From contig CAYUJR010000001.1 in NCBI GenBank assembly GCA_964445095.1, positions 48,283 through 103,695 on the forward strand: 55,413 nucleotides of DNA. The letters are read 5' to 3'. The notes beneath the pieces were generated by a model that ran no database searches, was not told the origin of the DNA, and saw only the letters and a program-made list of their open reading frames with translations. Made by a program: the position numbers and the translations under genes. The stretch is from an uncultured Gammaproteobacteria bacterium (GTDB lineage Bacteria > Patescibacteriota > Microgenomatia > Levybacterales > JACOYD01). Shown one piece after another: positions 21,045 through 53,632 of the stretch (within the stretch, counting starts at the first letter, position 1; every line of letters starts with the position of its first letter).

Positions 21045-21800
21045 TTACTGATATTGATTCTTGAGGTATCTCATGCATGCTGCTGGAAAACGAAGGGAAG
21101 AAAAAAAAGAAAAAATTAATCCCTGCCAGGAGTCCATAAAGCCTTTATGCTTCACGTAAGTTAATAAAAACCACCAAATTGGTTTAATAAATAGATAATC
21201 CAACAACATCAGAGGCCCGGGTTTATCTACCCGCAGTTCATCTCTAATAAGATTTACATAACGATTCCAGCGTAATAAATATCTGCTGAAAGTTATATCA
21301 GCCATATGAATTAGCGGGTTTTTAAGATAACCAACTTCACCCTCAACAACTGCCTGTTCATGAACGCTTTTTTGTGGCAATCTTCCTTTACCTCGCTTGT
21401 ATAGTCGGAGAGTATAATCGGGATAAACTCCACCCTTCATCAAAAATCTTCCTAAAAACCAATTTTTTCGTGGAATCCAATAACCAACGACTAATGACTG
21501 GTGACTAATGGCTGACTTAATCTCTCTGACAAGAGCTGGAGAAACTCTTTCGTCTGCGTCTAATTGTAAAATCCAATCCTTTGTCGCCATATCTATGGCT
21601 ATTTGTTTGTTAATATGAAAAATTGGCTTATTACTAACTACCCTTATTCTTGCTCCATATTTTTTGGCAATTTTAACGGTTTTATCAGTTGACTCCCCAT
21701 CAACAATAATAATCTCATTTGCTAAACTCTTAACGGAGGAAAGACAATCCGATAGATTCTTCTCCTCGTTATAAGTCGCCAAAACCACTGACAAGCTCAT
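21045..21800 (-). CDS. Glycosyltransferase family 2 (paralog group with 50396..51175 and 52724..53632)
   Basis: LSVVLATYNEEKNL, IIVDGESTDKT, QLDADE and GYWIPRKNWFLGRFL..GVYPDY. Confidence 0.8.
   Translation of the reverse strand: MSLSVVLATYNEEKNLSDCLSSVKSLANEIIIVDGESTDKTVKIAKKYGARIRVVSNKPIFHINKQIAIDMATKDWILQLDADERVSPALVREIKSAISHQSLVVGYWIPRKNWFLGRFLMKGGVYPDYTLRLYKRGKGRLPQKSVHEQAVVEGEVGYLKNPLIHMADITFSRYLLRWNRYVNLIRDELRVDKPGPLMLLDYLFIKPIWWFLLTYVKHKGFMDSWQGLIFSFFSSLRFPAACMRYLKNQYQ
21489..21516. repeat. Decayed heptanucleotide repeat homologous to the 53313 tract
   Basis: gactaat gactggt gactaat ggctgac. In coding sense, GCCATTA GTCACCA GTCATTA GTCGTTG aligns unit-for-unit with GCCATCA x4 of the paralog. 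Confidence 0.7.
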
Positions 21801-21809
21801 ATAATTGGT

Positions 21810-21815
21810 ATTATA
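21810..21815 (-). promoter_or_regulatory. Candidate -10 box inside the cluster (GT2 21045..21800)
   Basis: Minus strand TATAAT, then 9 nt to ATG 21800. A-rich upstream with no clear -35. Confidence 0.35.
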
Positions 21816-23235
21816 CCTTTTTTAATAACATTTTTTCTCCCGATTGATAAAGCACTTCAAACTTATATTGGGAAAAATATCCTCGTAGACTCTCCAGTTC
21901 TTCTCTAGTAGTAATAATAAATACTCTATCTTTCTGCAAAATTTTTATCCAATCGTCTTTTGGTTTAATCCACCAGGCAGTATTATGCTGATTTTCGCTA
22001 TAAACAGCATGAGTTTGACGTTGACTATAATAAACAATAGTGGGGTAATAATAATTGGTTAAATATAAAACATCATCTGCTGTTGTTAGGTCTCGTGCCG
22101 CCAGGGCCACTTTAGCCTCATCGCCTGCTATATCGGGTACAATATAATTATCACGATAAAAGAAAAGTTGTAGACTGCTAATGAAAAACGATATCATGAT
22201 AATGATAACCGTTCCCTTCTTTCCAATTTTTTTTCCCAAAACATTCAGGGAGTAGGCAATCGCCAGAGCGGTAATTGGATAAAGTGGCATAAGAAACCAA
22301 TTACTTTTATTTTCAGAGAAAGATAAGACGATAAATAAAGACACAAAATAAATAATGAGTATTATCTTATGACTATTTCTCCATTTAAGGAAAACGTAAA
22401 TAAACCCTGCAATAAATGGGATAAACCACAGTTTTAAGCCGCTCTTGAGATGCCAAATATATTCTAAGGAAAAGTTTTTCCAGAATAATGAAGATGTAGA
22501 AATTTTACCTAATTGATTAGCCAAAAAACTTTCAATAAATGGATAGCCATTATTCAAAAAAGTAAACAATACCCATGTTAAAGAAATAGCGATGCCGATA
22601 AAAATACTTCCTGTTAAAAATGGTAAATTGAGCAATCTATGTCTCCTCCTTGGAATAATATAGAGAAGAGAAAGAAGAGGAAATAAAAAAATAAGAGCTC
22701 CCTTCGTTAAAAAACCTAATCCCAATATAACTCCCATAGCTATAGACCATTTCACCAACTTCTGCTGATAAAATTTATAAAATGAAAGAATGGAAGCCAG
22801 AATAAAAAACGTGAAGAGCGCATCAAGATTACCAGTTCTTGCTCTAAATAAAAAGCCGATCGTAGAAGTAAAAACTATGAAAGCTAATATGGCAGTTGAT
22901 TTATTAAATAGGACTATTGCTAAAAAATAAAGGACAACGCCGGTCCCTAATCCTGCCATCACTGATGGTAGTCTGGCAGCAAACTCTCCCACTCCAAAAA
23001 CCTTCATCGTGGCTCCCGATAACCAAAAATAAAGAGGCGGCTTATCAAAAAATGGCTCCTTGTTCCAAATAAGAGTTGCTATTTCTCCATAAGCAACGTT
23101 GCGGGATATATCGGCATGCCAAGCTTCATCCCAATGAGTTAAATAATTGCTATCAAACCTATAGAAAAGAACGAATCCTAAAACAATAAAGAGAAAAAGG
23201 ATTAAGCCATTGGTTTTGCTAATAATTTTTTCCAT
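21811..23235 (-). CDS. ArnT/PMT_2-like GT-C glycosyltransferase
   Basis: HWDEAWHADISRN..PFFDKPPLYFWLSG..FGVGEFAARLPS is the typical ArnT/GT83-GT39 first-loop signature. Polytopic. Confidence 0.8.
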   Translation of the reverse strand: MEKIISKTNGLILFLFIVLGFVLFYRFDSNYLTHWDEAWHADISRNVAYGEIATLIWNKEPFFDKPPLYFWLSGATMKVFGVGEFAARLPSVMAGLGTGVVLYFLAIVLFNKSTAILAFIVFTSTIGFLFRARTGNLDALFTFFILASILSFYKFYQQKLVKWSIAMGVILGLGFLTKGALIFLFPLLSLLYIIPRRRHRLLNLPFLTGSIFIGIAISLTWVLFTFLNNGYPFIESFLANQLGKISTSSLFWKNFSLEYIWHLKSGLKLWFIPFIAGFIYVFLKWRNSHKIILIIYFVSLFIVLSFSENKSNWFLMPLYPITALAIAYSLNVLGKKIGKKGTVIIIMISFFISSLQLFFYRDNYIVPDIAGDEAKVALAARDLTTADDVLYLTNYYYPTIVYYSQRQTHAVYSENQHNTAWWIKPKDDWIKILQKDRVFIITTREELESLRGYFSQYKFEVLYQSGEKMLLKKV

Positions 23236-24851
23236 AAAGTGGGAATCCCCAAGAGTAATAAGATGTTCGCTAAGCTGATTAAATTAGCAACCAGTCTTAG
23301 TCTAGTTTCGCCAAAGATTATTTCAACCGAATGTTTTCCTCCGTCGACGAAAAATGTCACAAGTCCCCTATTGGCCGGATCTTGAAATTCAACAGCTACT
23401 TTTTTACCGTCAACTAAGACCTCCCATCCCGGAAAATAAAGAGTATTTTCTCTAATCCTAGCCCTAGTGATTACTCCTATTTCATATTGGTGATATGTTG
23501 AAGTTCTCTTCCCTTGTCTAATTAAAGCGTTTCCGCTGATAACCTCCATAGGCATCTCTGACTCTTTCTCCATAAAACGCACTGACCAAATGGGACTACT
23601 CTCTCCAGTATCAGTGGTACTAGAGTAAATACCCTTAAAGAAACTCTCGGGTTTTTTAAGATGGTCTTTCGCATGCCAATAATCTTTATTTACCAGCAGC
23701 AAAACAACAAGCAACAGGAAACAGGCAGCGAATTGAGCTTTCTTAGGAATTGCTGAAATTACCAGGCCTCCAAGAACAGCCGTAGTAAAAACGGTTACTG
23801 ATAGTAATCTCCAGGGAAATTGGAATTTTTGCAAAGTAGTCAAAGTTTCCCAGATGAATTGCGAGCTGGGAATCATTAGAAAAAGTGTTATTCCAAATAT
23901 CAAAAATAAGGCGGCTCCAAATATCCAATTTTTATCTCTTTTCTTATATAGAAGTAGCGTTATGGGTAAACTTAATAAAATCATTGACCATTGAACAATC
24001 CCCACCTGAACAGAAAACTGTCCGCTGATACCATAATTCCACGGACTAAAAATAAAATTTCTAAAATCAGCAAAACGTGAAGCATACTCTCCGGCTGTAA
24101 CAATATCCCGCAATGTATATTTACCTTCCAAAAAAGCCGGCACCCAGAAAAATGCGGATAATCCAAACCCTAAGACAGCCACTAACCCATAGCCCATAAT
24201 TAATAACCATTTTCGTTTTGATTGCCAGAGGAGAAATAGTGCATAAAGAAAAATTATAGGTAAAAACATCAGGCTGATGGCATTATGGGACAGGATTAAT
24301 CCGGCGAGTGAAAGTGCTCCGCCAACTATATGCCAGTAACTGTATTTTTTTGTTAGCTGCAAAAGAAAATAACAGACTAATGGAGGGAATATAAAAGCTA
24401 CATGCTCCCCTAGCGCACCACGAACATAAAGATCGATAAAACGATAGGGGGCAATTAGATAGAGCAAAGCGGATATAAAAGCTGCTCGTTTTCCTAAGAA
24501 TTCATTAATCCAAAGATACATTGTTAAACCGCTGAACATATATGTTATTCCAAAGACTAATTTTGTACTGTCAATTAAGGAAAAACCCAAAAAATGAAAA
24601 AGCGAAGCAATATAGGACGGTAACGGGTAGAGAAACATCAAGATGGGATGACCGTATCTCCAATTTAAATTGGCTGCCCATCGGGGAACGATATTCCCCT
24701 CGGTAAGATTTTGGTAAAAATTGGCAATGCGAGCCACATGATCCTGACCATCATGTGTTATCGGAAGGCCGGGATGTAAAAGATCAAAAAGCGGAATAAA
24801 GGAGAGAAAAATTAAAAAAACAAATAAGAGATAGCCATTCTGTTTCTTCAT
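23202..24851 (-). CDS. PTPS-related/COG5617-like polytopic membrane protein (putative GT-C), paralog B
   Basis: PITHDGQDHVARIANFYQNLTEGNIVPRWAANLNWRYGHPILMFLYPLPSY. C-terminal LYFPGWEVLVDGKK module. Confidence 0.6.
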   Translation of the reverse strand: MKKQNGYLLFVFLIFLSFIPLFDLLHPGLPITHDGQDHVARIANFYQNLTEGNIVPRWAANLNWRYGHPILMFLYPLPSYIASLFHFLGFSLIDSTKLVFGITYMFSGLTMYLWINEFLGKRAAFISALLYLIAPYRFIDLYVRGALGEHVAFIFPPLVCYFLLQLTKKYSYWHIVGGALSLAGLILSHNAISLMFLPIIFLYALFLLWQSKRKWLLIMGYGLVAVLGFGLSAFFWVPAFLEGKYTLRDIVTAGEYASRFADFRNFIFSPWNYGISGQFSVQVGIVQWSMILLSLPITLLLYKKRDKNWIFGAALFLIFGITLFLMIPSSQFIWETLTTLQKFQFPWRLLSVTVFTTAVLGGLVISAIPKKAQFAACFLLLVVLLLVNKDYWHAKDHLKKPESFFKGIYSSTTDTGESSPIWSVRFMEKESEMPMEVISGNALIRQGKRTSTYHQYEIGVITRARIRENTLYFPGWEVLVDGKKVAVEFQDPANRGLVTFFVDGGKHSVEIIFGETRLRLVANLISLANILLLLGIPTLWKKLLAKPMA

Positions 24852-26494
24852 AGACTTAAAATTTTAATGGCCTCTACTCCATCAAGATTATTAAAAGTTT
24901 TTAAGATAATCTGATTATTCGTAACCTCTTTAGCATTGACTACATATAAAACTTCCCTCTCCATGCTTTCTTTTTGTAGATCAACCGATCTAAACTCATA
25001 TTTTCCAAATTGATGACTTTCCGCAAACCCACCGGACTTAGTTCCTCCCTGCTTTTGATAAAGCAATGGATCGTAGTGACTATAGTATAAAAAAAGCATA
25101 TACGATTGGTAGAGATTATCTTTATTTGAGAAAACTATTTTCTGATAATTCTCCTCTCGGGAAAGAACATAAGGAATAGCTTTTGATAGTACATAATGAA
25201 ATGAATTGGATTGCTCTCTGGGAAAAACAATAAAATAATTTTTATAAAAAGTGACTAGGCTAATTAAGACAAGTAGCCCGAAGATAGTCAAGGTTATAAA
25301 TTGAAACTTTTTTAGCTTGGTCAAGATGTATACCAAGCCAAATGCAGCAAAAATTTGCCAAACGACAACGAGACTATAAGAACGCATGGCATGTGGAGTT
25401 TGGGTAGCAATAGCCGCTGGCAGAGGCGCCAAAAAAAGCCAAAGAAAAATCAATTTTTTTATCCTGCTATCCAAAAGGCGACTAAAAATAATAGCTAAAA
25501 ACCCTATAATTATTAGTGGAAGCTCCCATAAATAAAGCAAGCCCATATTGGGTACTTTGTGCGGCTGGGCTCCAGAATTAGCAAATAGCCATTCGGGTTT
25601 AAAGTGAGAAAGATATCCCTCCGCCAATACCTGGAATTGAAAAAAATATTTGTTATAAACTAGGGTGCCAATAATATCATTGTTATTAATGGCATTACTC
25701 CAAAGCGCTAAACGCTGGTTAAACCTTTCCAGGTGTGCTTCCGGTCTAAAAACGCTGGTACCTTGAAAGCGGATTAAAGCCTCGGGAGAAAATATCTCTT
25801 TAAAAATAGGAATAAGTAAAATCGCTAAAACAAGAAAACTAATTATTATCTTTTTATCCGATAAAACAAACGCTAGTAGTTTTTCCCTGAAGATAAAGAA
25901 TAAACCTATTACAAACAACGGTATGAAAGCTTGCCCCGAATAATAGCTAATCAGGGAGAGAGTAAAGAAGATTATTGAAAACAAAAGTCGTAACTTATCC
26001 TTTTGACCTTGCAAGAAAAACAGAATTCCAAAAACCAGGAAGGCCAAGCTTGCATTAGATTCATGCCCAAGACGAGAAATATAGATATGCCAGGGACTAA
26101 TTGCCAATAAAAATGAGGTAAGAAGTGCGAAATTTGAAGAGAAGACTGAACGTTTCGAGAATAAAGATAGCGCAATGTGGTAGGTTGCTAGAATAGTTAG
26201 AATCGACAGAACGACCGCTGGCAGACGAACTGATATCACATTTAAATCAAATAAGGCTACGAATGGAACGACTAAATAAAGATATGTTGCTCTTCTCCAG
26301 TCATCATAAGCGCGGTGAGACAGAATAGGCAACTCTTTATATTCATCACCGCCAGTTTTTAAGAGAGAATAGGCATTGTAACCAATTGAGGCTTCATCCA
26401 TGGAAGTGCTGGGAGGAACACTCCCCAAGCTCCACAGCCGTAGAATTGCCGCTAATACCAGTATGGCAATTAAAATAATTAGTTTTCCCTTCAT
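24848..26494 (-). CDS. GT39/PMT_2-like GT-C glycosyltransferase, paralog A of 5
   Basis: LRLWSLGSVPPSTSMDEASIGYNAYSLLKTGGDEY..VRLPAV first-loop DE motif. Polytopic, with a C-terminal soluble domain (GGFAESHQFGKYEF). Confidence 0.75.
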   Translation of the reverse strand: MKGKLIILIAILVLAAILRLWSLGSVPPSTSMDEASIGYNAYSLLKTGGDEYKELPILSHRAYDDWRRATYLYLVVPFVALFDLNVISVRLPAVVLSILTILATYHIALSLFSKRSVFSSNFALLTSFLLAISPWHIYISRLGHESNASLAFLVFGILFFLQGQKDKLRLLFSIIFFTLSLISYYSGQAFIPLFVIGLFFIFREKLLAFVLSDKKIIISFLVLAILLIPIFKEIFSPEALIRFQGTSVFRPEAHLERFNQRLALWSNAINNNDIIGTLVYNKYFFQFQVLAEGYLSHFKPEWLFANSGAQPHKVPNMGLLYLWELPLIIIGFLAIIFSRLLDSRIKKLIFLWLFLAPLPAAIATQTPHAMRSYSLVVVWQIFAAFGLVYILTKLKKFQFITLTIFGLLVLISLVTFYKNYFIVFPREQSNSFHYVLSKAIPYVLSREENYQKIVFSNKDNLYQSYMLFLYYSHYDPLLYQKQGGTKSGGFAESHQFGKYEFRSVDLQKESMEREVLYVVNAKEVTNNQIILKTFNNLDGVEAIKILSL

Positions 26495-26497
26495 TGA

Positions 26498-30445: not shown

Positions 30446-32067
30446 ATGGAGTAAGCCGACAGGACGGGCTCACCATTTAATAAATAGAATGTTTTCAAAA
30501 CTGTAGCACCGCCTGGAACATTTTCTGGCGTATCAATAAAAAGTGTTTTTTTGCTATTGAGATGCTCCTTGGGGTTCTTGGTAAAAAGATATTTTTTATA
30601 TCCCTCAACATGGACAAATCCATAAGCCTCTCTATAGATTTTAGCCGTCTCTCGAAAAACTTTGGGATCTTCTTTTTTGTAAAAAAGGACGTAAATATAA
30701 GGGCGGCCCAAGCTTTCTGTAGCAACTATTTTGTCGTATTGAGATTCGACTCTTTGCGTATAGGAAATTATCTCACTATACCCATATTGCCACTCTCCGG
30801 AAAACTCTCTGGGATAATGAGTATAGTAACCATGATAATAATAAAGAAAATTAGCAGCTAGCAACAAGCAACTAGCAATTAAAAATAACTTCCTAATTCC
30901 TGATTCATAATTTCTAATTCCTGAAATGAATTGATAAAACCCGTATGCAATAAGTATCTGAAATGTAGGAAGAGTTGTTTCGATTCTCAAGGCATGAGGA
31001 GTTTCCCGGGCTGTCCCTGCTGGAATAATTCCCACCAATAACCATAAAGGAACTATCCACCAATTGCCTTCACGCCTTCTTAAAAGTAAGAATATTCCGA
31101 ACACTAAGAACGGCAAATCCCATAAATAAAGTTGGCCAACATCTTGCGTGGAAAATTTGGGATTACCGTCGCCCTTAATAAACAGAAAGTTTGGGTTAAG
31201 ATTGTCAAAATAATGTTTTAGATATTCTACTCCATAGGCTAAGCGGCGATTGTGAACTATTTTTGACCACCAAGCATTACTATCGTTCGCTATTAGCTGA
31301 TTAGTTCTCTCTATAACTCCCACATCGGAAAAAATATTTACCTCTTGAAATCTTAATTTTGCTTGAGGACTAGTTAGAAATTGTGCCAAGGGCGTAATTA
31401 GAATAACCCCTATTATTATCGCTATCAAGACATGCGTTCTTATCTTTAACAGTTGTTCCCGAAAACCTACCCCTAATAATATAAGCAAAAGAGGGGCTAC
31501 AATTCTGGCTGTATTAAATGCATACATCGAGAGAATAAAAGAACCGGCTGATAATAATAGATACCATTTCTTATCCTGTACTGCGGCTAAAAATAACCAA
31601 ACTCCGGAAATAATAAAAAATGTTGCAATATTTGCTTCAAAAGCCGCTCTGGATAAATTAATATGCCAAGGAGAAATAGCCAAGAAAAAACCACTCATTA
31701 AAGCCAAGGCTTCTACACGGAATAAACGTCTCACTAAGAAATATGTAACAAGCACAGTTAATACTCCAAAAAATGCAGAAGGGAATCTTACGGCAAACTC
31801 ATTCAACCCCAAAATCTTCACTGGTAAGATATCAAGATATGCATACACCGGCGGTTTAAAATCACCAAACGATTCCAGATATTGAATTGGTAAAAATTTA
31901 CCAAATTCATCCCGTCCATCGATACCGAGAGAATACGCGTTATATCCCCACGCCGCCTCATCCCAAGTCAAGGATGGCGGATTAGCTCCCAATTGATAAA
32001 AGCGTAGAAAAACGGCCAGTAAAATAACTATCCCTAATATAATTTTGTTATTTATTATCTTTTTCAT
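30442..32067 (-). CDS. GT39/PMT_2-like GT-C glycosyltransferase, paralog C of 5
   Basis: LRFYQLGANPPSLTWDEAAWGYNAYSLGIDGRDEF..VRFPSA. Start set to MKKIINNK (ATG 32067), which gives an ATGA overlap with the upstream stop. The track ORF extends to 32094. Confidence 0.75.
   Translation of the reverse strand: MKKIINNKIILGIVILLAVFLRFYQLGANPPSLTWDEAAWGYNAYSLGIDGRDEFGKFLPIQYLESFGDFKPPVYAYLDILPVKILGLNEFAVRFPSAFFGVLTVLVTYFLVRRLFRVEALALMSGFFLAISPWHINLSRAAFEANIATFFIISGVWLFLAAVQDKKWYLLLSAGSFILSMYAFNTARIVAPLLLILLGVGFREQLLKIRTHVLIAIIIGVILITPLAQFLTSPQAKLRFQEVNIFSDVGVIERTNQLIANDSNAWWSKIVHNRRLAYGVEYLKHYFDNLNPNFLFIKGDGNPKFSTQDVGQLYLWDLPFLVFGIFLLLRRREGNWWIVPLWLLVGIIPAGTARETPHALRIETTLPTFQILIAYGFYQFISGIRNYESGIRKLFLIASCLLLAANFLYYYHGYYTHYPREFSGEWQYGYSEIISYTQRVESQYDKIVATESLGRPYIYVLFYKKEDPKVFRETAKIYREAYGFVHVEGYKKYLFTKNPKEHLNSKKTLFIDTPENVPGGATVLKTFYLLNGEPVLSAYSI
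30853..30927. repeat. Two adjacent imperfect heptamer arrays (AGCAAYT-type then CTAATTC-type) in GT39-like paralog C
   Basis: agcagct agcaaca agcaact agcaatt (30853-30880). ctaattc ctgattc ataattt ctaattc ctgaaat (30893-30927), including an 11-nt exact direct repeat ctaattcctga at a 21-nt spacing. Confidence 0.7.
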
Positions 32068-34505: not shown

Positions 34506-36192
34506 AAGATTTTTTAGATTCTAGTATCTTGAAGACTGCCGTTCCATCGCTTCTTTTAATTTCTTCCAGTTTTTGGCTATTTTGGGGAACCGCACACGCA
34601 CTATAATTCACATAAAGCACGTTCTCTTTCCTAGTAGTTCCTTTCTCTTTACCTGTTTGATCTTTCAGTTCTCTTAAGGGACACTCTTCTTGGGAAAAAT
34701 CATACTTTCCAAACCCAATCCTATCGAAATCTTGTATCGCACTTCCTCTTGTTTCTTCTTGAAAAAGATGTGGATTGTATTTACCAAAAAAGAGGAAGAA
34801 GATGGCTGGGGCTGACTCGTGATCGGTAATAACTATCTTGTCGTAATTTACCAGATATTCCTTTGTTTTAGCAATAAGCTCTTTGTACCCATCGTGTCTG
34901 TACCATGGTCTGTAGCGCGGACCATGAACATAATATTGGTGTAAGTAATATGAAAAATTAAAAATAAAAAATAAAAAAGCAAAAAGATATATTGGATATT
35001 TTATTTGTATATTTGATATTTGATGTTTAATATTTGATAATGCAATTAATCCAACCCCTTCAATTATTGATAGTGCCGGAAAAACAAGTAAAGTTCGCTG
35101 TAAATTTGGAACATCATCAAATGTCAATGCGCTTCCAAACGGAGCTAATAATAACCATCCAATGAGAAATGCTCCGGCGCTATTTCTCATTCGTAATAAA
35201 CTCCATATGCCAAACGTAAGTAAAGGCAGTTCAAAGATTAATAATAATCCTGTAAGAGGTATTCTATATCTATCCGGAAGACCTTTATCTGTAAAAAGAA
35301 AATCATAGGAGAAGTGCTTAAAGTAATTCTGTAGTACTTGAAAGGAATAGCCCAGTGGCTTATTATGAAATGTTCTTGTAAGAAATCTTTGCACATTTGA
35401 TACCCCATCCTCACGGAGTTGTTCATCGATGATAAGTTGTGACTCTGCAGTTGCAAAAATACTAACAGTTCGTAATCGTAAAGTTAGTTCTTTTGAAAGA
35501 AAAATTATCGAAAGCGGTATGAGTATTACAAGAATAAATAGGATTAGGATAGATGTAAGTTTTTTTCTGTCGAACTTTACTTTGGGTAAGATAAATACCA
35601 TGAAGGGAATAAATATCGGAAGAAAAGCGCGGGATGCTTGGTAAATAAAGAGAGTCGCTCCAAACGATAAAAAGGAAAAAAGAAGCAGATACCATTTCTG
35701 TTTTTCTCGCCAAATAAGAAAAAGTAGAACTCCAAGACTTATAAAGAAAACTACAAGTACATTTTCATTAGCAGTCCTGGAAAGATTAATATGCCAAGGA
35801 CTAATCGTAAGTAGTATCGCAGCTATTAGCGAATAGCCAATAGCTAACGGAGACCTGCGAAATAATTCTTTAGTTAAAAAATAGGTAACTAAAATCGTTA
35901 AACTACCAAAAAATGCCGAGGCGAAACGAACTGAAAAAGCATTTAGATCAAAAATCTTTATAAAAGGTATTGAAAAATACGAATATCCGGCGGGACTGTA
36001 GAGAAATGACTCTAGATGCAAAGGCAAAAAATTGCCGCTCATGTCACGTCCTGTCTTTAAAATGGAATAGGCATTATAGCCAAGGAAGGCTTCATCTCGA
36101 TGAAAGCCAACAGGAACATCGCCCAGCTGATAGAATCGTAAAAATAATCCCAGAATAAAAATTATCCCCAGAATAAAGACTGTTCTCTTCAT
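34489..36192 (-). CDS. GT39/PMT_2-like GT-C glycosyltransferase, paralog D of 5
   Basis: LRFYQLGDVPVGFHRDEAFLGYNAYSILKTGRDMSG..VRFASA. Confidence 0.75.
   Translation of the reverse strand: MKRTVFILGIIFILGLFLRFYQLGDVPVGFHRDEAFLGYNAYSILKTGRDMSGNFLPLHLESFLYSPAGYSYFSIPFIKIFDLNAFSVRFASAFFGSLTILVTYFLTKELFRRSPLAIGYSLIAAILLTISPWHINLSRTANENVLVVFFISLGVLLFLIWREKQKWYLLLFSFLSFGATLFIYQASRAFLPIFIPFMVFILPKVKFDRKKLTSILILFILVILIPLSIIFLSKELTLRLRTVSIFATAESQLIIDEQLREDGVSNVQRFLTRTFHNKPLGYSFQVLQNYFKHFSYDFLFTDKGLPDRYRIPLTGLLLIFELPLLTFGIWSLLRMRNSAGAFLIGWLLLAPFGSALTFDDVPNLQRTLLVFPALSIIEGVGLIALSNIKHQISNIQIKYPIYLFAFLFFIFNFSYYLHQYYVHGPRYRPWYRHDGYKELIAKTKEYLVNYDKIVITDHESAPAIFFLFFGKYNPHLFQEETRGSAIQDFDRIGFGKYDFSQEECPLRELKDQTGKEKGTTRKENVLYVNYSACAVPQNSQKLEEIKRSDGTAVFKILESKKSYEEKF
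35003..35038. repeat. Imperfect ATTTGAT-family heptamer array in GT39-like paralog D
   Basis: atttgta t atttgat atttgat gtttaat atttgat. Encodes NIKHQISNIQIKY. Confidence 0.8.
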
Positions 36193-36193
36193 T

Positions 36194-42405: not shown

Positions 42406-42459
42406 ATCTTCTTTATTATCTTAAAGTATTATGATAAATATTGCAACAGCAATATATTG

Positions 42460-42465: not shown

Positions 42466-42476
42466 AGTTTCAATTT

Positions 42477-43187: not shown

Positions 43188-43917
43188 ATTTAATCAGCGT
43201 CCAAAGAGCAATCACGCCATCCCTAATAGTATTTAGTTTTTTACCTTCAGCATATCCTCTGGGGTTGGTGCTGATAGGAACTTCCATAATTTTATATCCC
43301 TTTTTTAGTAATTTGGCAGTAATTTCAGGCTCAAAGTCAAAACTTTTTGCCCGAAGGGTAATGCCGGCGAGGGCACTTTTGGGAAAAAGCTTGTAACCGG
43401 TCTCCATGTCAGTCAACCATTGACCGTAAAGAAGACTTGTCAATAGACTCAATAATCTGTTGCCAAAATAATGTAACAAGAAGCGAAATGTTTTTTCATC
43501 TCGACTAAGATCTGGCCATCTTCTTAACCTAGTGCCATAAATTACTTGAGTCTGGCCGTCAAGAATTGGCCGAATTAACTTTTCTATATCGCTAGGGTGA
43601 TATTCCAGATCGGCGTCCTGAATAATAATATACTCTCCAGACGCATTATTAATGCCGGTTCTGACCGCAGCTCCCTTCCCCTGATTATTTTTATGCTTAA
43701 CGCTTTTAAGATTTGAGATTTGAGATTTTCCGCCAGAGGCGGATCCGCCTTTGGAGGAGATATTTGATATTACCGACGCGGTAGCATCGGTCGATCCATC
43801 ATCAACTACAATTATTTCTATAGTAATCTTTGCTATTTTGAGACTAGCTATAGCCCGCAAAACTTGCCCGATAGTTTTTTCCTCGTTATACACTGGAATA
43901 ACAATAGATAATTTCAT
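43171..43917 (-). CDS. DPM1-like GT2, predicted polyprenyl-phosphate sugar synthase, with low-complexity insert
   Basis: LSIVIPVYNEEKTI, VVDDGSTDAT, NNQGKGAAVRTG, IQDADLEY and FEPEITAKLLKKGYKIMEVPIS. The insert ISNISSKGGSASGGKSQISNLKS lies between the DGSTD and GKG motifs. Confidence 0.8.
   Translation of the reverse strand: MKLSIVIPVYNEEKTIGQVLRAIASLKIAKITIEIIVVDDGSTDATASVISNISSKGGSASGGKSQISNLKSVKHKNNQGKGAAVRTGINNASGEYIIIQDADLEYHPSDIEKLIRPILDGQTQVIYGTRLRRWPDLSRDEKTFRFLLHYFGNRLLSLLTSLLYGQWLTDMETGYKLFPKSALAGITLRAKSFDFEPEITAKLLKKGYKIMEVPISTNPRGYAEGKKLNTIRDGVIALWTLIKFRFLN
43704..43771. repeat. Composite: ATTTGAG-type heptamers, GC-rich palindrome, ATTTGAT heptamer
   Basis: ttttaag atttgag atttgag attt (43704-43728). 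ccgccagaggcggatccgcc, with the perfect 14-nt palindrome aggcggatccgcct at 43737-43750. atttgat att (43762-43771). Confidence 0.8.
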
Positions 43918-44828
43918 GATAATACTTCGTTATCAGATTTTATAAACAATTTTCGTACCCTTAGGCCTTCTTTAATAATAGCAGGTAATCTAATCAGAGC
44001 TAGAAAAAATCCTATTAAAAAATAAAGATCGCCCCGCATAAAAGCTCTTACAACATGATATGGCAACCACAAAAGATGCCATAACCGCTTATTAAGATCA
44101 GTTATATTCTTCCAGACAAATATAAACTGATTTCGATAGGCGATAATTTTGATTTTGAAATCCGGTTGATAATGTTTAATGGCACCATATGCATGCTCAT
44201 GGACAACAACTGCTTTTGGTTCAAAGAAAATTTTATGTCCCGATTTCAACGCTCGATAAGAAAGGTCTATGTCTTCCCAATAAAATGGGTTATAAAGAGA
44301 ATCAAAACCGCCCAGCTTCTCCCAGGTTTTTTTTCTAAAGGCACCTGATCCTCCAGAAACCCACAACGTATCTGTCTTATCAACCTCACCTCTTCTGTGG
44401 ATAAGGAAACCCCGCTGAAATTTACCAATTCCCCGACCTCTCAATACAATTTTTCTACCCTCAATGCTTTTGTCAAGACAACCCACGGCAAAAATATTGC
44501 TATCGTCAAAGTGGGAAATCAGCGGGTTTAAAAAATCTTTTTGGGGAGCCACATCCGTATTAAGTAAAACAACAATTTCTCCCTTTGCTTCTTCTACTCC
44601 CCTATTAATCGTCGAGGAAAAACCTAAGTTTTTCTCGTTACGAATAATTTTTAATTTAGGGTATGTATTTTTGATATATTCTACCGACCCATCCTGCGAG
44701 GCATCATCTACAATGATTATTTCAGCTATACTGTCTTTATATGCCGTAGTTGCGTCTAGAACTTTTGATAAATTTTTTCTTAGAAGTTCTTGACCATTGT
44801 AATTTGGAATAATAATACTTATATTCAT
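43914..44828 (-). CDS. Glycosyltransferase family 2
   Basis: ISIIIPNYNGQELL, VDDASQDGS, LLNTDV and YWEDIDLSYR. Confidence 0.8.
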   Translation of the reverse strand: MNISIIIPNYNGQELLRKNLSKVLDATTAYKDSIAEIIIVDDASQDGSVEYIKNTYPKLKIIRNEKNLGFSSTINRGVEEAKGEIVVLLNTDVAPQKDFLNPLISHFDDSNIFAVGCLDKSIEGRKIVLRGRGIGKFQRGFLIHRRGEVDKTDTLWVSGGSGAFRKKTWEKLGGFDSLYNPFYWEDIDLSYRALKSGHKIFFEPKAVVVHEHAYGAIKHYQPDFKIKIIAYRNQFIFVWKNITDLNKRLWHLLWLPYHVVRAFMRGDLYFLIGFFLALIRLPAIIKEGLRVRKLFIKSDNEVLS

Positions 44829-48125: not shown

Positions 48126-50415
48126 AGATAAATTCTATCTGGCTTTCTCCGGCTGGAATAACAACTGCCCGAAAGGTGTAATCTGCTCTATAAATTTTAA
48201 CATCTTCTCCGCTTAATTTTGCTTTCCAACCGGGGTAAAAATTATCCGAGAGAAATAAAAATGCTGGACTGTCGGTCTTGACGGCAATAATAATTTTATT
48301 CGGGGTATATGAAATAATTTGGGCGCTTCCGCTGCCTTCTTTGCTTGGCGCAAAAAAAGGCTTATCTTCTACAATCAATGTCTTTCTAAAATCAAAGCTA
48401 TCGCTGTAAAATCTTTTGATTATTTCCCGATCGCTTTTTATCACCTCAAAATTATAAAAGAGTAAAGCTCTGGGTAATGCTAGATTATTTTTAAATAGCT
48501 GATGCTTGCTGTCTTGATAAGCCAATGTATATCTTTTTGGGTCCTGCCAAACCGGATAAGCCCAGCCGGCATTAGTATCGCTGATAGGATTAAAAATTAA
48601 AGAAACTCCTAATAGGTCTAACGCTCGGTCGGTAAATCTTCCCCGCCTATCAAGGTTTACCACCGACCGTTCTCCCTGTAAAAATTCTCCTGTACCCGCG
48701 CTTCTTATAAATTCGCCATAGCGGTTGACGTATAAAGGATCATAGCCTTCAATAATAGGAAAACCGTAATAAGAAGAAACCCCTGCTCCAATATTGCCAA
48801 AGATTCGCCCGCCCCCAATATTTTTTTTAATCGCCTCAATAACAGGAACCGGCGGATAAACTAATCCTTTTGGATCAAACGGCATCCATTTTTGGGCGAA
48901 GCGAAGGCTGTCGAAAGAAGCAACAAGTAACAGGTAACAAGTAATAAGTAATATAAATTTTTTATTAATTTTTAAAAGACCAACAAAAAATACTACGCCT
49001 ATAAATAATACTGTCGGCAAGACTAAATTTCTTTTTGCCACAATCAGCCATTCCTGTGGATATACTTTTCCAAAAAACAGCAGAAGCCAAATGGAAGCAA
49101 AAAAAACTGCCACCAAGGTAAATAATGCTATCATCTTTTTATTTTCCCTAACATCTCTAATTCCCCTAATTTCCCCAATGAGCCGGTCAAAACCAAATCC
49201 CGCCAGAACCGCCAGCGAAAAACTAAACAAAACAATAATTCTTGATTGAGCGCTTGTTGATAAAACAGGAATTTTTAAGGAGACTATAATATTAGAAATA
49301 TTAAGATTAATAGGAATATTATAAATATAAAAAACTGGGATGTATACAGCAAGAAGAAGTGATACTACTGCTAAAATTACAAAAAATGATATTTTCTTTA
49401 TCTGTATTCTCAAAATTGCATAAATGGCAAGCATTAATGGGATGATGCCGATAAACGACGCCCATTCGGCATAATGCCCAAACCAGTCATTTCGAGTAAC
49501 AGGATTACCAAAAAAATCCGGCGAAAAAACAGTAACAAGATATTGAAAAGGTATCGCCTCGCCTACTTGAAAAAGCTCACTGCGAACCGATTGACCATAA
49601 AGTCTTATCGATGGTAAGAGCTGTGGCAGTGAAAGAACTAAACCTAATAAAATAGCAACTAGCAATTGGTAATTAGCAATTAGTTTTTTAACCGATAGTG
49701 CATTAAAAAAAGTATAAGCAATAATTGCTACTAGAAAATATAAACCTATTTGAAAATGACCGGAGAAAAACGACAGAGGAATTGTCAGAGCAAGTAGTGC
49801 CAAAAAACGTATTTGTCTTTGCTGATAATATTTTTCAATAGCAAAAAGAGCAAGCGGCAAATATAAAATTGCAAAAGCCAATGTTCCATAAGCCATCCAT
49901 ACCACGATGAAGCCACAGAACATAAAACTAATACTACCAATCAGTAATCCCGTAGCGCTTATCTTAAGCGTTTTTAAAAACATCGACATGAAAATTCCTG
50001 CTAATAATGGTTGTAGAAGAATTAAAATGCTCCAGGCATCGATAAAGGGAAGTAAGGAAAAAAGAGCATTTCCAGGGGAAAGTACCGCCGATTGAAAATT
50101 GGCTAAATGAGGATTGCCGGAAAAACTATATGGGTTCCATAAGGGTATCTGACCGTTTTTCCACGTTTCGATAGTAAATTTCTTCCAGGGGTATATTTGG
50201 GTATGAACATCAGGCATGGCATTATTTTTGACCGGTCCCCAAAATTGTTCATAATGACTCCAGGGGGCAAAAAAATTTACCTGATAAGTCGAGGCATAGG
50301 GAACTTTTTCCTTAATAAAATAAGGACTGGCAAAAATAAACCAAAGCCCGAAGATAAAAATAATCGGCCAGAATCTTAATAAAAAGTTTTTAGTTTTAAG
50401 TTGTAGTTTTGACAT
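48106..50415 (-). CDS. YfhO-family GT-C membrane glycosyltransferase, paralog D of 4
   Basis: FFAPWSHY..IYPWKKF..NGQIPLWNPYSFSGNPH. C-terminal LSDNFYPGWKAKLSGEDVKIYRADYTFRAVVIPAGE. Start set to MSKLQLKTKN (ATG 50415). The track extension to 50502 would overlap the upstream GT2 by 107 nt. Confidence 0.8.
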   Translation of the reverse strand: MSKLQLKTKNFLLRFWPIIFIFGLWFIFASPYFIKEKVPYASTYQVNFFAPWSHYEQFWGPVKNNAMPDVHTQIYPWKKFTIETWKNGQIPLWNPYSFSGNPHLANFQSAVLSPGNALFSLLPFIDAWSILILLQPLLAGIFMSMFLKTLKISATGLLIGSISFMFCGFIVVWMAYGTLAFAILYLPLALFAIEKYYQQRQIRFLALLALTIPLSFFSGHFQIGLYFLVAIIAYTFFNALSVKKLIANYQLLVAILLGLVLSLPQLLPSIRLYGQSVRSELFQVGEAIPFQYLVTVFSPDFFGNPVTRNDWFGHYAEWASFIGIIPLMLAIYAILRIQIKKISFFVILAVVSLLLAVYIPVFYIYNIPINLNISNIIVSLKIPVLSTSAQSRIIVLFSFSLAVLAGFGFDRLIGEIRGIRDVRENKKMIALFTLVAVFFASIWLLLFFGKVYPQEWLIVAKRNLVLPTVLFIGVVFFVGLLKINKKFILLITCYLLLVASFDSLRFAQKWMPFDPKGLVYPPVPVIEAIKKNIGGGRIFGNIGAGVSSYYGFPIIEGYDPLYVNRYGEFIRSAGTGEFLQGERSVVNLDRRGRFTDRALDLLGVSLIFNPISDTNAGWAYPVWQDPKRYTLAYQDSKHQLFKNNLALPRALLFYNFEVIKSDREIIKRFYSDSFDFRKTLIVEDKPFFAPSKEGSGSAQIISYTPNKIIIAVKTDSPAFLFLSDNFYPGWKAKLSGEDVKIYRADYTFRAVVIPAGESQIEFIYENWYL
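48920..48954. repeat. Imperfect GTAACAA-type heptamer array in YfhO-like paralog D
   Basis: gcaacaa gtaacag gtaacaa gtaataa gtaatat. Encodes a TM segment, LLITCYLLLVA. Confidence 0.7.
49654..49688. repeat. Imperfect AGCAAYT-type heptamer array in YfhO-like paralog D
   Basis: agcaact agcaatt ggtaatt agcaatt agttttt. Encodes LIANYQLLVAI. Confidence 0.7.
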
Positions 50416-51175
50416 TTGAGTTTTGCGATTTGAGATTATTCTGTAACTCCCAAAGTCTGGCATAAGTAATAAACATACTAAAAGCTTGATATATACTCTC
50501 AATTAGTCCTACCGTCCCCGCCTTCCAACCGCTCTGTCTTATATACGAATCAAAAAATGCGGTAAGCATTACACGCGGAAACCGCCACCATGTCATTTGA
50601 GGATGTCCCGCTTTTAGCCGTAGCTCTGCCTCAATTTTAGACCACTCGATAGTTTTCTCAACCATTGAAGTAAAGTCTTTGTGCGTATAATGCAGTAGGA
50701 ATCCATCAAGCTCCCCTATTTTTCCATCAATAACCGGACTTTCGTGAAGCTGCCCTCGCCATTCTTTTAATGCATCTTTTCTAAAAAGCCGCTCTATTTT
50801 CTCAATATACGGCCACTCGTGCTTTCCGAAGTAGAAATTTTTCCTGCTAATCCTAAAAACAGCATAATTTTGATATTTGATATTTGATATTTGATATTTG
50901 ATATTGTCGCGAAGCGACGTTGTTATCCGTTCATCCGTATCCACATACAAAACCCATTCCCCTTTTGCCTCTTGTAATCCCTTATTTCTCAACTGGGCAA
51001 AACTGTCTGTATTAATAGTCAAGACTTTAGCCTTAAGATATTTAGCAACTTCTGCCGTCCTATCTGTCGACGAGTTATCAACTACAATTACCTCATCGGC
51101 AAAATCAACAGAGGTGATGGCATCAGCAATCTCACCCTCCGCATTTTTAGCAATAATAATAATTGACAGCTTCAT
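50396..51175 (-). CDS. Glycosyltransferase family 2 carrying a perfect heptanucleotide tract
   Basis: LSIIIIAKNAEGEI, VVDNSSTDRTAEVAK, VDTDE and RISRKNFYFGKHEWPY. Paralog of 21045..21800 and 52724..53632. Confidence 0.8.
   Translation of the reverse strand: MKLSIIIIAKNAEGEIADAITSVDFADEVIVVDNSSTDRTAEVAKYLKAKVLTINTDSFAQLRNKGLQEAKGEWVLYVDTDERITTSLRDNIKYQISNIKYQNYAVFRISRKNFYFGKHEWPYIEKIERLFRKDALKEWRGQLHESPVIDGKIGELDGFLLHYTHKDFTSMVEKTIEWSKIEAELRLKAGHPQMTWWRFPRVMLTAFFDSYIRQSGWKAGTVGLIESIYQAFSMFITYARLWELQNNLKSQNSNVKTTT
50414..50437. repeat. Imperfect ATTTGAG-family heptamers at the GT2 stop / YfhO start overlap
   Basis: atttgag ttttgcg atttgag att. Covers the C-terminal tail of 50396..51175 and lies immediately upstream of, and overlaps, the YfhO-like D start codon (ATG 50415). 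Confidence 0.6.
50869..50906. repeat. Perfect heptanucleotide tandem repeat (TTTGATA) about 5.4 copies, in-frame in a GT2 gene
   Basis: Five exact units at 50869-50903 plus a partial ttg. The coding-sense unit ATATCAA encodes NIKYQISNIKYQ. Confidence 0.95.
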
Positions 51176-52080
51176 AACTCGTAGCTTCCTCTACCAAATT
51201 TTCCCAGGTAAAAATCCAGCGCTCCTCTTTTTTGCCATAATCTACCATTGATTAATAACCCGAAACTTTCTCGCAAAAGTGCTAGTTTTGACCGAAGCGG
51301 TGCATATCTTATGCCAAAAAGCAACCGGTTTCTGGTAATGTAATAATCTTGAAGTGAGGAACCAGAACCGCCTGCTGAACCGGCGTTTTTGTGCCAGAGC
51401 ACTGCTCTTGGATTAAATACTATTTTAAAACCGGCTTTTTTTGCTCGAAGAGAAAAATCACTGTCTTCATAATACAAAAAATATTTATTGTCTAACATCC
51501 CAATTCTTTCAAAAACGCTTCTTTTAATCATCATGCAACACCCACTGGCGAAATCCGTTTCTTCTTCTTTTTCATATTGACCACCGTCAACATCGTCAAC
51601 GCCCCGGTGTCTACCAACGACATTTTCCCAATCAACTATTCCTCCCGCATACCAAATAACTTTCCCCAAATCTTCCTTTTTATATCTGTCTTTATGAAAT
51701 TCAAAACTAGGGGCAAAGTAAATTTTGGGGGCCACCATTCCGATCTTTTTGTCCGATTCTGCAACTTTAACAAGTTCGTTAACCAAATTTTTATCAACAA
51801 CAGTATCATTATTCAGAATAATAACGTACTCTGCCCCATTTCTTAGTGCATAATTAATGCCAACATTATTCCCTCCCGCAAATCCTAAATTCTCTTTATT
51901 TCTAATAATCTCTACCCTTTCCCCTTTACCCTCTACCCTAAACTCTTCTTTTGATCCGTTATCAACAACAATAGTTTGTAGTTTGTAGTTTGTAGTTTGT
52001 AGTTGACTAAGGCTCTCTAGGCACTCCAGTGTATCTCTAGTCCCATTCCAATGGAGGATGATTATAAAAACAGTTTTCAT
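51172..52080 (-). CDS. Glycosyltransferase family 2 (WbbL/rhamnosyltransferase-like class) carrying a perfect heptanucleotide tract
   Basis: VFIIILHWNGTRDTLECLESL, VVDNGS, NLGFAGGNNVG, ILNNDT and FLYYEDSDFSLR. Confidence 0.85.
   Translation of the reverse strand: MKTVFIIILHWNGTRDTLECLESLSQLQTTNYKLQTIVVDNGSKEEFRVEGKGERVEIIRNKENLGFAGGNNVGINYALRNGAEYVIILNNDTVVDKNLVNELVKVAESDKKIGMVAPKIYFAPSFEFHKDRYKKEDLGKVIWYAGGIVDWENVVGRHRGVDDVDGGQYEKEEETDFASGCCMMIKRSVFERIGMLDNKYFLYYEDSDFSLRAKKAGFKIVFNPRAVLWHKNAGSAGGSGSSLQDYYITRNRLLFGIRYAPLRSKLALLRESFGLLINGRLWQKRGALDFYLGKFGRGSYEL
51972..52004. repeat. Perfect heptanucleotide tandem repeat (TAGTTTG) about 4.7 copies, in-frame in a GT2 gene
   Basis: Four exact units at 51972-51999 plus a partial tagtt. 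The coding-sense unit CAAACTA encodes QLQTTNYKLQT. Confidence 0.95.
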
Positions 52081-52727
52081 TCCGTAGTAATTTTTACTCT
52101 GGCTTGAATAAGTTGAGTGCGGGCTCCTAATTGAGTTTTCATTTGCACCCGATAAAGCTTGTTGCCACTACCTAATCCCAAGGCAGTAGAAATCAATAGC
52201 TTTGGCTCTCCTCCTTCTATAGAAAGCTCCGAGGGCCATACCATATTTTTATCGCTCACATTATATAGTCTGACATAAGTTGTCTGATTACCGGTGGGAG
52301 TATAAAGCGAGGCTTCAAAAACTGCACTTTTTATCCGACCGTATTTAGTATTATCTATGTAGGTCTCAACTCCTGGAACATCTGTCCAATCCTTGGCTGT
52401 ACTCTCGCCTGAACCTAGCGATATCAAAAATTCCCGAGCCGGCCCAGCTACTTGACTGCCAATCGCACTAGTATTTTGCGCAGGAACAATATTAATAGAT
52501 GCTGTAGCTATTTTTACTATCTCTTCTACTTCCTGCCGAGTAATACCTATAGCATCAGCAGAAGCTGTCGCTACCGACTGCGATCCTCGTTCCACAAAAA
52601 CAACTTGCTTTTCCGGTAGATTTTTTTCCTGAACAAAAAATTTATAATCTAATAATATTAGATTACCTAAAGCGAGCAGTAAAATTATTCCCGCTAAAGC
52701 CAGTAGAACCCTTCGTAGTTTAGTCAT
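52077..52727 (-). CDS. Membrane-anchored extracytoplasmic protein of unknown function
   Basis: Start set to MTKLRRVLLALAGIILLLALGNLILL (ATGA overlap with the upstream stop at 52724). It has a single N-terminal TM anchor followed by a beta-rich soluble domain. No recognisable motif. Confidence 0.5.
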   Translation of the reverse strand: MTKLRRVLLALAGIILLLALGNLILLDYKFFVQEKNLPEKQVVFVERGSQSVATASADAIGITRQEVEEIVKIATASINIVPAQNTSAIGSQVAGPAREFLISLGSGESTAKDWTDVPGVETYIDNTKYGRIKSAVFEASLYTPTGNQTTYVRLYNVSDKNMVWPSELSIEGGEPKLLISTALGLGSGNKLYRVQMKTQLGARTQLIQARVKITTE

Positions 52728-53632
52728 AAAAACTTCCTTTGCAGTTTTAATAATAATTTTTCCCAAATATTTTTACTGTCATTTAAGCGTGCTGTGATTA
52801 GCCAAAAATTTAACTCTCCTCTTAGCTTTTTTGACTCATTCTGGAGCGAATTGAGGGAAATTTTGTCCGTCGGCGCAAAATTTTTCTTCTCCCAAACAGT
52901 CACAAAAACAATCAAATGATAAAAGGCCATTAGTAGGCTTAAAACTAGTCCATGAAGTCCATCTTTATAACCTTGTTGGGCAAAAAAACGATTAATGAAC
53001 TCTTTGGCCGGCATCCTAATGCTATCCAAGTAGTTGAATTGATAATTATTTCTTAGCAGGTTTTGAGCTTCGTTGGGAGTATAAATATAGGTAAGTTTAT
53101 TTAAAAATTGACTGACATTATCGTAGTTTAAGTGCTCGAGATGGTTAGTCAATTTTTCTGTGAGGCCGGCAACTTCTACCATTTCATGAACATGCCGTTC
53201 GGGAAACTTACCCTTGCCTTTCTTGAATAACCTTAATTGATAGTCCGGATACCAACCGGTGTGACGCATCCATTTGCCAAAAATGATATTTTTTCTGGGA
53301 ATCCAGTAGCCACTGATGGCTGATGGCTGATGGCTGATGGCTAAGAGTATTTCTTTTTTAAGCTCTGGTGTAACTCGTTCATCCGCATCCAAACTAAGAA
53401 TCCAATCTCCCGTGGCTTTAGTAAATCCGAAGTTCTTATTGACATTAAGCATTGGGTTGTTGGACCGGGCATAGATTCTTGAGGTGTATTCTTTGGCAAT
53501 TTGGGCGGTTTTATCGGTTGAGGAGTTATCAATAAATATTATCTCATCCGCCAGCTGGCAGATTGACCCTAGACAATCGCGAATCTTGTCTTCCTCATTA
53601 AAAGCAGAGATAACTACCGACAGTCCTATCAC
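52724..53632 (-). CDS. Glycosyltransferase family 2 carrying a perfect heptanucleotide tract
   Basis: GTG start. LSVVISAFNEEDKI, FIDNSSTDKTAQIAK, SLDADE and GYWIPRKNIIFGKWMRHTGWYPDY. Confidence 0.8.
   Translation of the reverse strand: MIGLSVVISAFNEEDKIRDCLGSICQLADEIIFIDNSSTDKTAQIAKEYTSRIYARSNNPMLNVNKNFGFTKATGDWILSLDADERVTPELKKEILLAISHQPSAISGYWIPRKNIIFGKWMRHTGWYPDYQLRLFKKGKGKFPERHVHEMVEVAGLTEKLTNHLEHLNYDNVSQFLNKLTYIYTPNEAQNLLRNNYQFNYLDSIRMPAKEFINRFFAQQGYKDGLHGLVLSLLMAFYHLIVFVTVWEKKNFAPTDKISLNSLQNESKKLRGELNFWLITARLNDSKNIWEKLLLKLQRKFL
53313..53342. repeat. Perfect heptanucleotide tandem repeat (CTGATGG) about 4.3 copies, in-frame in a GT2 gene
   Basis: Four exact units at 53313-53340 plus a partial ct. 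The coding-sense unit CCATCAG encodes ISHQPSAIS. Confidence 0.95.

Follow-up and report, generated by a model that had tools for sequence, protein, structure and literature searches.

As a rule, a non-triplet repeat within a gene is either purged or put to use as a phase-variation switch. The locus described here raises the question of why three paralogous genes for family 2 glycosyltransferases (GT2) each carry a tract of tandem 7-nt units at the same codon position, and of how such tracts arise and persist. The genes are located in a stretch of 55,413 nt (hereafter the window), which comprises positions 48,283 to 103,695 of contig CAYUJR010000001.1 (GenBank assembly GCA_964445095.1, GTDB lineage Patescibacteriota; Microgenomatia; Levybacterales; JACOYD01), and are referred to by their first coordinates as the 21045, 50396 and 52724 genes. 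An earlier note, made from the sequence alone, had taken the site to be a preferred and tolerated location for a hypervariable tract. Comparison with about 300 relatives (L-numbers denote their DNA loci or contigs and P-numbers their proteins) agrees with this. It further indicates that the arrays evolve in concert, that a segment of ~70 nt containing them moves between the three gene families, and that the hot spot is long-lived, with no sign of an on/off switch.

The coding strand of the 52724 gene reads tta GCCATCA GCCATCA GCCATCA GCCATCA Gt ggc tac tgg, whereas the array of the 21045 gene, preceded by tca and followed by gt tat tgg, has nine differences from (GCCATCA)4, every one of them a transition. 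When the three proteins are aligned, the arrays (Table 1) share the same columns between the DxDER motif with its helix and the (Y/F)xI(P/S)RKN strand, so that the 7-nt-periodic tracts described by the earlier note at one site in three paralogs are present as described. The start of 21489 that it implied for the 21045 tract is only that reported by Tandem Repeats Finder; the array itself has the limits 21485–21512. Only three perfect tandem repeats (at least three copies, period 4–15) exist in the window and all have period 7, with 4.3, 5.3 and 4.7 head-to-tail copies, which places them in the class of heptanucleotide simple sequence repeats (SSRs; at least three copies). At a threshold of at least 85% match, four period-7 arrays were found in the window against none in 30 dinucleotide-preserving shuffles, and no arrays of periods 5, 6 or 8–12 were found in the window at the same threshold. 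Chance is excluded as their source, and the view that the tracts are no random low-complexity accident is borne out, period 7 alone being enriched.

Table 1. Glycosyltransferase genes, heptamer arrays and helix-loop segments in the window.
Feature	Position	Strand	Remarks
GT2 gene, GmaR/WaaE-like, 302 aa, C-terminal hydrophobic helices	52724..53632	-	PF00535 E=1e-27; AlphaFold pLDDT 91
GT2 paralog, 251 aa	21045..21800	-	PF00535 E=4.5e-21
GT2 paralog, 259 aa	50396..51175	-	PF00535 E=3.7e-16; AlphaFold pLDDT 94
Fourth GT2 gene, rhamnosyltransferase-like subfamily	51172..52080	-	PF00535 and TIGR01556 matches
Perfect (GCCATCA)x4.3 array, encodes A98-S107 (AISHQPSAIS)	53313..53342	-	52724 gene
Perfect (AATATCA)x5.3 array, preceded by gac, encodes N91-Q102 (NIKYQISNIKYQ)	50869..50905	-	50396 gene
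Decayed array GCCATTA GTCACCA GTCATTA GTCGTTG (AISHQSLVV)	21485..21512	-	21045 gene; decayed GYCRYYR type
Exchangeable helix-loop segment, type A (R86-G108, RVTPELKKEILLAISHQPSAISG)	53309..53377	-	52724 gene
Helix-loop segment (R85-G106)	21483..21548	-	21045 gene
Helix-loop segment, type B (R83-V106; TCGCTTCGCGAC then AATATCA array)	50858..50929	-	50396 gene
Perfect (CAAACTA)x4.7 array (QTTNYKLQT), before IVVDNGS strand	51972..52004	-	Fourth GT2 gene, codons 25-36, different site
Decayed TCTCAAA-type array, GT2 stop / YfhO start junction	50408..50437	-	Overlooked by the earlier note
Further decayed 7-mers, including those in YfhO and PMT-like genes	48915-48951, 49653-49683, 34989-35039, 30851-30922		Overlooked by the earlier note

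The assignment of these genes to GT2, with a GT-A fold, is based on PF00535 matches (E=1e-27 to 4e-16), a DADE or DTDE motif, confident models and matches to SunS, TarS, SpsA and GmaR in the Protein Data Bank (PDB). Of nine GT2 genes in the window, only the GmaR/WaaE-like 21045, 50396 and 52724 genes belong to the subfamily with the DxDER...(Y/F)xI(P/S)RKN signature, and their products are 41% (21045 versus 52724), 32% and 27% identical to each other. Mapping of the loop on GT2 models, a check which the earlier note had proposed, was carried out with two AlphaFold models built with ortholog alignments, and in both the array falls on the end of a helix and the loop behind it. In the 52724 model, A98-S107 form the end of helix 89–100, loop 101–105 and the start of strand 106–117, and in the 50396 model N91-Q102 form the second half of helix 86–98 and loop 99–103. 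The local predicted distance difference score (pLDDT) falls to 85–86 at the array in both. As the helix begins at the DxD motif and the returning strand carries the conserved RKN in both models, the array loop is probably the point farthest from the catalytic centre, a placement that follows from topology and not from computed distances. The closest solved GT2 catalytic domains are those of GmaR of Listeria monocytogenes (PDB 22ao) by sequence (E=8e-24) and of the peptide S-glycosyltransferases SunS/ThuS, together with WrtF, TarS and SpsA, by fold. GmaR aligns through the corresponding helix-loop-strand region, while the C-terminal parts of GmaR and SunS/ThuS differ from those of the Levybacteria enzymes. 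We know of no repeat in GmaR or SunS/ThuS.

The same site was found to be occupied in orthologs. Among 81 orthologs of the 52724 gene, 15 of 15 arrays lie inside the DxDE-YWIPRKN segment, which makes up 7.5% of the gene length, and at least 10 different units occur there (ATCCAAC, TCAACTC, AATTGGA, AGACCAA, GTAATCA, GAATCAA, TCAACAA, AAGTCAC, GTCAGCA, AATATCA). Orthologs of the two other paralogs show a like pattern, and the description of the loop as a preferred and tolerated site can be kept for all three. In the 50396 family, AATATCA-type arrays are present at this loop in at least nine species; those of the window, L030 and L024 are perfect, and those of at least six other species have decayed. 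Matching peptide signatures are present at the loop in the 21045 family (120 proteins). An i/i+7 periodicity with at least three matches was detected in 36 of 119 segments of the 52724 family and in 29 of 120 of the 21045 family (shuffles, ~10–11). The arrays cluster at ~4.3 units (30 nt). Approximately 70–80% of orthologs have an ordinary non-periodic loop with no array at the site, and many of these loops are plain, short and non-repetitive. Other changes were also seen at this loop: relatives P0122, P0040, P0134, P0074 and P0141 carry G+C-rich insertions encoding Pro/Gly-rich peptides (for example RPPAGEA, seven additional residues, in an 88% ortholog of the 21045 gene). In two Roizmanbacteria loci (L061 10001–10291 and L069 10001–10297) a GT2 fragment of residues 1–99 or 1–104, which ends at the loop position, stands directly upstream of a full-length gene.

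When the closest orthologs of the 52724 gene were compared as DNA, their arrays were found to have identical length and phase. The window has four perfect copies of GCCATCA (4.3 in total) and L087 has four perfect copies of GCAATCA (4.3 in total), while L085 (GCCATCA ACCATCA GCCATCA GCCATCG) and L086 (GTCATCA GCCATCA GCTATCA GCAATCA) are intermediates. A single base change (C-to-A, L087) has thus reached all units of the array in at least one lineage, and this is concerted evolution. The claim that the inserts of the 52724 and 21045 genes are homologous at the DNA level holds and extends to orthologs. L082 and L083 (72–78% orthologs of the 52724 gene) have decayed GTCGTTA-type arrays that are nearer to the 21045 array of the window than to its 52724 array. 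With respect to length, L027 has AAATTGGGAATT (AAATTGG x1.7), whereas L209 and L060 have AAATTGG x4.7 with otherwise the same flanks, an in-frame expansion of 21 nt, and P0048 and P0073 differ in length by seven residues. Unit-number changes between relatives were seen in steps of three units, and none of a single unit.

The arrays are contained in a larger unit of variation. Judged by sequence comparison, the helix-loop-array segment of ~70 nt occurs as discrete types which are common to all three paralog families, a feature described here for the first time. Type A (PELKKEILLAIS followed by a G[CA][CA]ATCA array) is found in the 52724 gene of the window and in L211, a member of the 21045 family from another sample; the two segments are 86% identical as DNA, with flanks only 46% and 36% identical at the protein level. 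Type B (PSLRD followed by an AATATCA array) is found in the 50396 gene of the window, in L212 (21045 family) and in L013 (52724 family), with 76% DNA identity. Two further types, ILDQRPKTKDQ and EKIGNWKLEIGNS, are shared by the 52724 and 21045 families, the former being present in L008/L010 and L210 and the latter in L060 and L209, respectively. The AATATCA unit had been called unrelated to the other two by the earlier note, and it does differ from them in the window, but its segment type occurs in both of the other families in other genomes.

The remainder of each gene follows its own family, the N- and C-terminal parts being 70–76% identical within families and 27–51% between them. Sliding DNA identity between families peaks at 87–100% around codons 80–110 over a background of 40–65%, and the window 21045 gene and its ortholog L211 show the reciprocal dip, to 53–60% in the segment from a background of 70–87%. 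In a nearest-neighbour test, all five genes of the 21045 family for which DNA was available, as well as the 52724 and 50396 genes of the window, had their closest segment in another family; that of the window 21045 segment is in L082/L083 of the 52724 family (70%). Close relatives may differ in the segment alone, as identities of the N-terminal part, C-terminal part and segment are 96, 94, and 17% for P0028 versus P0103, 96, 95, and 27% for P0025 versus P0073, and 88, 93, and 15% for P0001 versus P0002. The boundaries are sharp: between L008 and L013 the DNA breaks at ...GTTACGCC (RVTP) and AATGG(C/T)TATTGG (NGYW), the ~70 nt between them being replaced by the type-B tract. Local incongruence with sharp boundaries of this kind is expected of mosaic exchange, and the pattern carries the signature of short-patch recombination at conserved flanks. 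The exchange may have taken place by intragenomic conversion followed by divergence, or between genomes. Mosaicism of whole genes, with N- and C-terminal domains from different families, was rejected since the short segment alone is discordant. Chimerism of the assemblies is judged unlikely because the pattern recurs in metagenome-assembled genomes from GenBank and in ENA and Logan assemblies; it would also need two crossovers within ~110 nt.

Short-tract ectopic gene conversion is exemplified by futA/futB and the bab genes of Helicobacter pylori and by the opa genes of Neisseria. As in those systems, a short internal tract that is common to paralogs and bounded by conserved sequence is discordant with the rest of the gene. 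The Levybacteria tract is unlike them in being only ~70 nt long, in holding a heptamer array, in crossing genomes and in joining families that are 27–52% identical elsewhere. The alternatives offered by the earlier note, independent occupation of the site or maintenance versus decay of one repeat, are therefore incomplete, as concerted evolution and segment exchange are also visible; the hot spot on which they were based stands.

Period-7 repeats were also found to be abundant outside these genes. In 80 related loci (1.36 Mb) of Levybacteria and other Microgenomates, taken from contigs representing one genome per species and scanned with the ortholog alignment, 56 period-7 arrays (four copies, at least 85% match) were detected against none after triplet shuffling, whereas periods 5 and 8–12 gave 0–2 arrays. 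Period 7 is thus over-represented relative to composition-matched expectation both in the window and in its relatives. When the threshold was relaxed, 88 arrays were counted, 76 of them within intact open reading frames (ORFs). The over-representation of heptamers in bacteria, and the idea that polymerase slippage causes it, are already in print, and the repeats described in that source include GGGAATC of Xanthomonas, GGGGA(C/T)T of Nostoc and the STRR of Calothrix (Mrazek, Guo and Shah 2007 via PMC4692102). As far as that account describes them, prokaryotic heptamer SSRs resemble the present arrays in their tandem 7-nt units, in the enrichment of period 7 alone, in the many loci per genome, in length and sequence varying between related species and in the proposed polymerase slippage. 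Those described there are mostly intergenic and G-rich, with one or few units per genome, unlike the Levybacteria arrays, which are A/T-rich, stop-free in all frames, ~4–5 units long and translated inside conserved enzymes, with many different units and at sites that are conserved between species and between paralogs. What distinguishes the locus within this known repeat class is that its arrays are coding, keep their position, evolve in concert and recombine. We found no paper that deals with simple sequence repeats or with phase variation in bacteria of the Candidate Phyla Radiation (CPR).

On balance, the account that we hold to be probable is that the heptamer arrays are born by slippage, tolerated and self-homogenising, and that they sit in a permissive helix-loop segment which paralogs also exchange with one another. 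The arrays, the hot spot, concerted evolution, the +21-nt steps, the exchange of segments and the intact frames were observed, whereas slippage as the source, the neutrality or tolerance of the tracts and the mechanism of recombination are inferred. The tracts would be translated members of the heptanucleotide SSR class, of which Levybacteria and Microgenomates have a strong excess, originating by replication slippage under a lineage-wide preference for 7-nt units. They would survive only where the protein tolerates any sequence, namely in the last turns of the helix after DxD and in the loop before the RKN strand, and their unit would have to be stop-free in all three frames. Only slips of three units (21 nt, seven residues) would keep the gene intact, so that the array would stay near 4–5 units, and occasional slips would re-homogenise it, giving rise to concerted evolution. 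On either side of the segment stand DNA motifs (DADERVTP and (N)GYWIPRKN) that all three families have conserved. Between them the whole segment would be exchanged by short-patch recombination, with paralogs and/or related genomes as partners, which would account for the circulation of the same array types in the three families. As slippage predicts, the +21-nt case is an extension of a 1.7-copy seed that was already there.

Several points weigh against this account. Slippage was not directly observed, the Logan contigs (k=31) breaking at arrays. Perfect arrays in long-diverged lineages need ongoing homogenisation, which implies frame-breaking slips of a single unit as well, and for that reason a contingency role has to be given some weight. 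Since most array-bearing segments have the modal length of 23 residues and not seven more, the arrays replace the loop rather than simply lengthen it, which plain slippage does not explain. Nor does the account explain why the period is 7 nt and not 4, 5 or 8. No donor copy was identified for any exchange, and the 52724- and 50396-family segments within one genome are no more alike than those from different genomes (28 genomes, permutation p=0.54), so that conversion of these adjacent genes by each other, which had been considered, is not supported.

A role as contingency loci, in which slips of one unit would reversibly, if slowly, switch single glycosyltransferases off and on and so vary the cell-surface glycan, has an established precedent. 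The pilin-glycosylation glycosyltransferase gene pglE of Neisseria is phase-varied by an intragenic heptanucleotide repeat (PMC7157529). In both cases such a repeat lies in the ORF of a glycan-building glycosyltransferase, where gain or loss of one unit would break the frame. Non-triplet repeats are indeed found here inside ORFs of surface-glycan genes within a 55-kb glycosylation island, three adjacent GT2 genes have a perfect array each, and perfect arrays have been kept across deep divergence, which needs ongoing slippage. For pglE, on and off states are known among isolates, whereas no copy frameshifted at the array was found among ~190 array-family genes, and in-frame and out-of-frame alleles were not found side by side among relatives. 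Neither the 81 genes of the 52724 family, the 68 of the 50396 family and the 76 of the 51172 family nor the 76 arrays inside ORFs in 89 sources included a frameshifted copy; five apparent frameshifts were all junctions of a GT2 stop with a YfhO start, and no gene was broken at the array. The tracts are also short (4–5 units), unlike that of pglE, and missing from most orthologs (~70–80%). No 7-nt indel is listed in the contigs of eight public groundwater runs, although k=31 Logan contigs end at arrays and drop rare variants; the source runs include two samples of 2017 and four of 2020 that contain 45–99% of the region. The source sample has contigs of 33 and 34 nt that match the GCCATCA array and may be pure-repeat words of an array of at least 37 nt. 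Such an array may belong to a second locus and is thus not assignable to a +1 allele of the 52724 gene. The second locus, seen in contigs of runs X1, X6 and X7, has the identical 31 nt, (GCCATCA)4.3 followed by T (53312–53342), and continues ...AISHQPSAIS-WVEITEDYMR, and is therefore part of another gene. It has a depth close to that of the window organism, and an exact-pattern scan of Joint Genome Institute (JGI) metagenomes for it found nothing. On this evidence a switch is unlikely, though a chance remains that should be borne in mind.

In another reading, the helix-loop would be a determinant of specificity or geometry, with arrays making variants and recombination shuffling them as cassettes among paralogs. 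A base change spread through an array would alter up to three residues (the step from GCCATCA to GCAATCA replaces H by N and, at the same time, P by Q), and a change of three units would lengthen the helix by two turns. Domain shuffling in HsdS and the heptad ruler of H. pylori fucosyltransferases are analogies. The discrete types common to three families, the complete replacement between proteins 92–96% identical elsewhere and the sharp breakpoints at conserved motifs would all suit this adaptive reading. It is nevertheless improbable, as the segment ends a 12-residue helix that leads away from DxD and is probably far from the active site, many orthologs manage with plain, short loops, and the catalytic domain is cytoplasmic, hence no external selective agent is obvious. 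We give similarly little credence to a dedicated or mobile process, an activity linked to an element or polymerase that would install four-unit arrays of ~30 nt, made of genome-preferred units, at permissive sites. The clustering at ~4.3 units, the overwriting rather than lengthening of the loop, the identical 31 nt in another gene context in the same samples and the presence of (CAAACTA)n on dozens of further contigs from these metagenomes speak for it. However, the analysis found neither an enzyme nor a target motif or element boundary; units at the site differ by single bases among relatives, as is expected of evolution in situ, the 1.7-copy seed of the +21-nt case fits slippage, and recombination at conserved flanks accounts for what the paralogs share. 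A last reading, that selection on the protein conserves a peptide of only seemingly repetitive make-up, is very unlikely; in its favour stands the recurrence of AISHQ-like peptides in several orthologs and a paralog. The relatives that keep an AISHQPS-type peptide (L085, L086, L087) encode it by DNA that is still 7-periodic, whereas the earlier note had named synonymously diverged, non-repetitive DNA as the mark of such selection; repeat copies within an array use identical codons, at least 10 unrelated peptides were found at this position, and ~70% of loops are non-periodic.

A broader proposal draws on several of these ideas. Levybacteria might use a defined helix-loop of GmaR/WaaE-like glycosyltransferases as the basis of a cassette system, in which heptamer arrays generate loop variants and the DADERVTP and GYWIPRKN flanks may let cassettes of ~70 nt move between three families and genomes. 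We regard it as speculative and rather unlikely. If true, it would either diversify enzyme behaviour or act as a slow on/off contingency, and this in bacteria whose episymbiotic life is mediated by surface glycans. Irrespective of this proposal, a whole lineage of the CPR/Patescibacteria keeps translated 7-nt repeats in conserved enzymes, at fixed structural positions and over long evolutionary times. The arrays offer a map, drawn by nature, of the sites at which GT-A glycosyltransferases permit sequence change, a tractable system in which to ask why 7-nt slippage is favoured by polymerases, and a concrete place to ask whether uncultured episymbionts vary their surface glycosylation.

The window has a G+C content of 36.6% and consists almost entirely of a co-directional glycosylation island of 55 kb on the minus strand, which encodes sugar-nucleotide enzymes, nine GT2 and three family 4 glycosyltransferases (GT4), flippases, membrane proteins related to YfhO/PTPS (five genes) and many PMT-like GT-C proteins (at least seven paralogs). 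The best matches of the window proteins are to Candidatus Levybacteria or Patescibacteria. The array of the fourth GT2 gene, near its N-terminus, was overlooked by the earlier note. Its family has hot spots of its own, with nine arrays of differing units at codons 24–35 or 43–58. With regard to a possible dispersed family of the STRR type, the GCCATCA array recurs at the second locus in the same samples, and TCTCAAA-type units occur in the window at 43705 and 50408. Arrays of TCTCAAA, ACTCAAA and GTTAAAA types also recur at the overlap of GT2 stop and YfhO start in L027 (3631), L031 (12592), L034 (12581) and L054 (13212).

At least 14 species have a further hot spot, with differing units such as ACTATTT, CGCTATA, CTTCTCA and GGTCATT, ~650–760 nt into a gene of 560–600 aa that lies 3–4 kb upstream of the 52724 ortholog (L005 6722, L010 5432, L013 5337, L018 6909, L030 6914, L033 6765, L059 5657, L068 6952, L072 3137, L075 7367, L079 7374 and others). 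The scan of JGI metagenomes detected at least four copies of GCCATCA in at least 120 contigs (L089-L208; 36–74% G+C, up to 17 copies), mostly from unrelated high-GC organisms in which the array is mostly outside long ORFs; GCCATCA is a heptamer repeat widespread well beyond the CPR, and the scan is uninformative for the 52724 gene. The (CAAACTA)n repeat (51969–52005) was seen with different flanks in the dozens of other contigs mentioned above, at a summed depth of up to ~3200, and this unit is common in the groundwater community. The longest array seen was (AACCATT)x8.7 in L051 (12613–12673), outside any long ORF.

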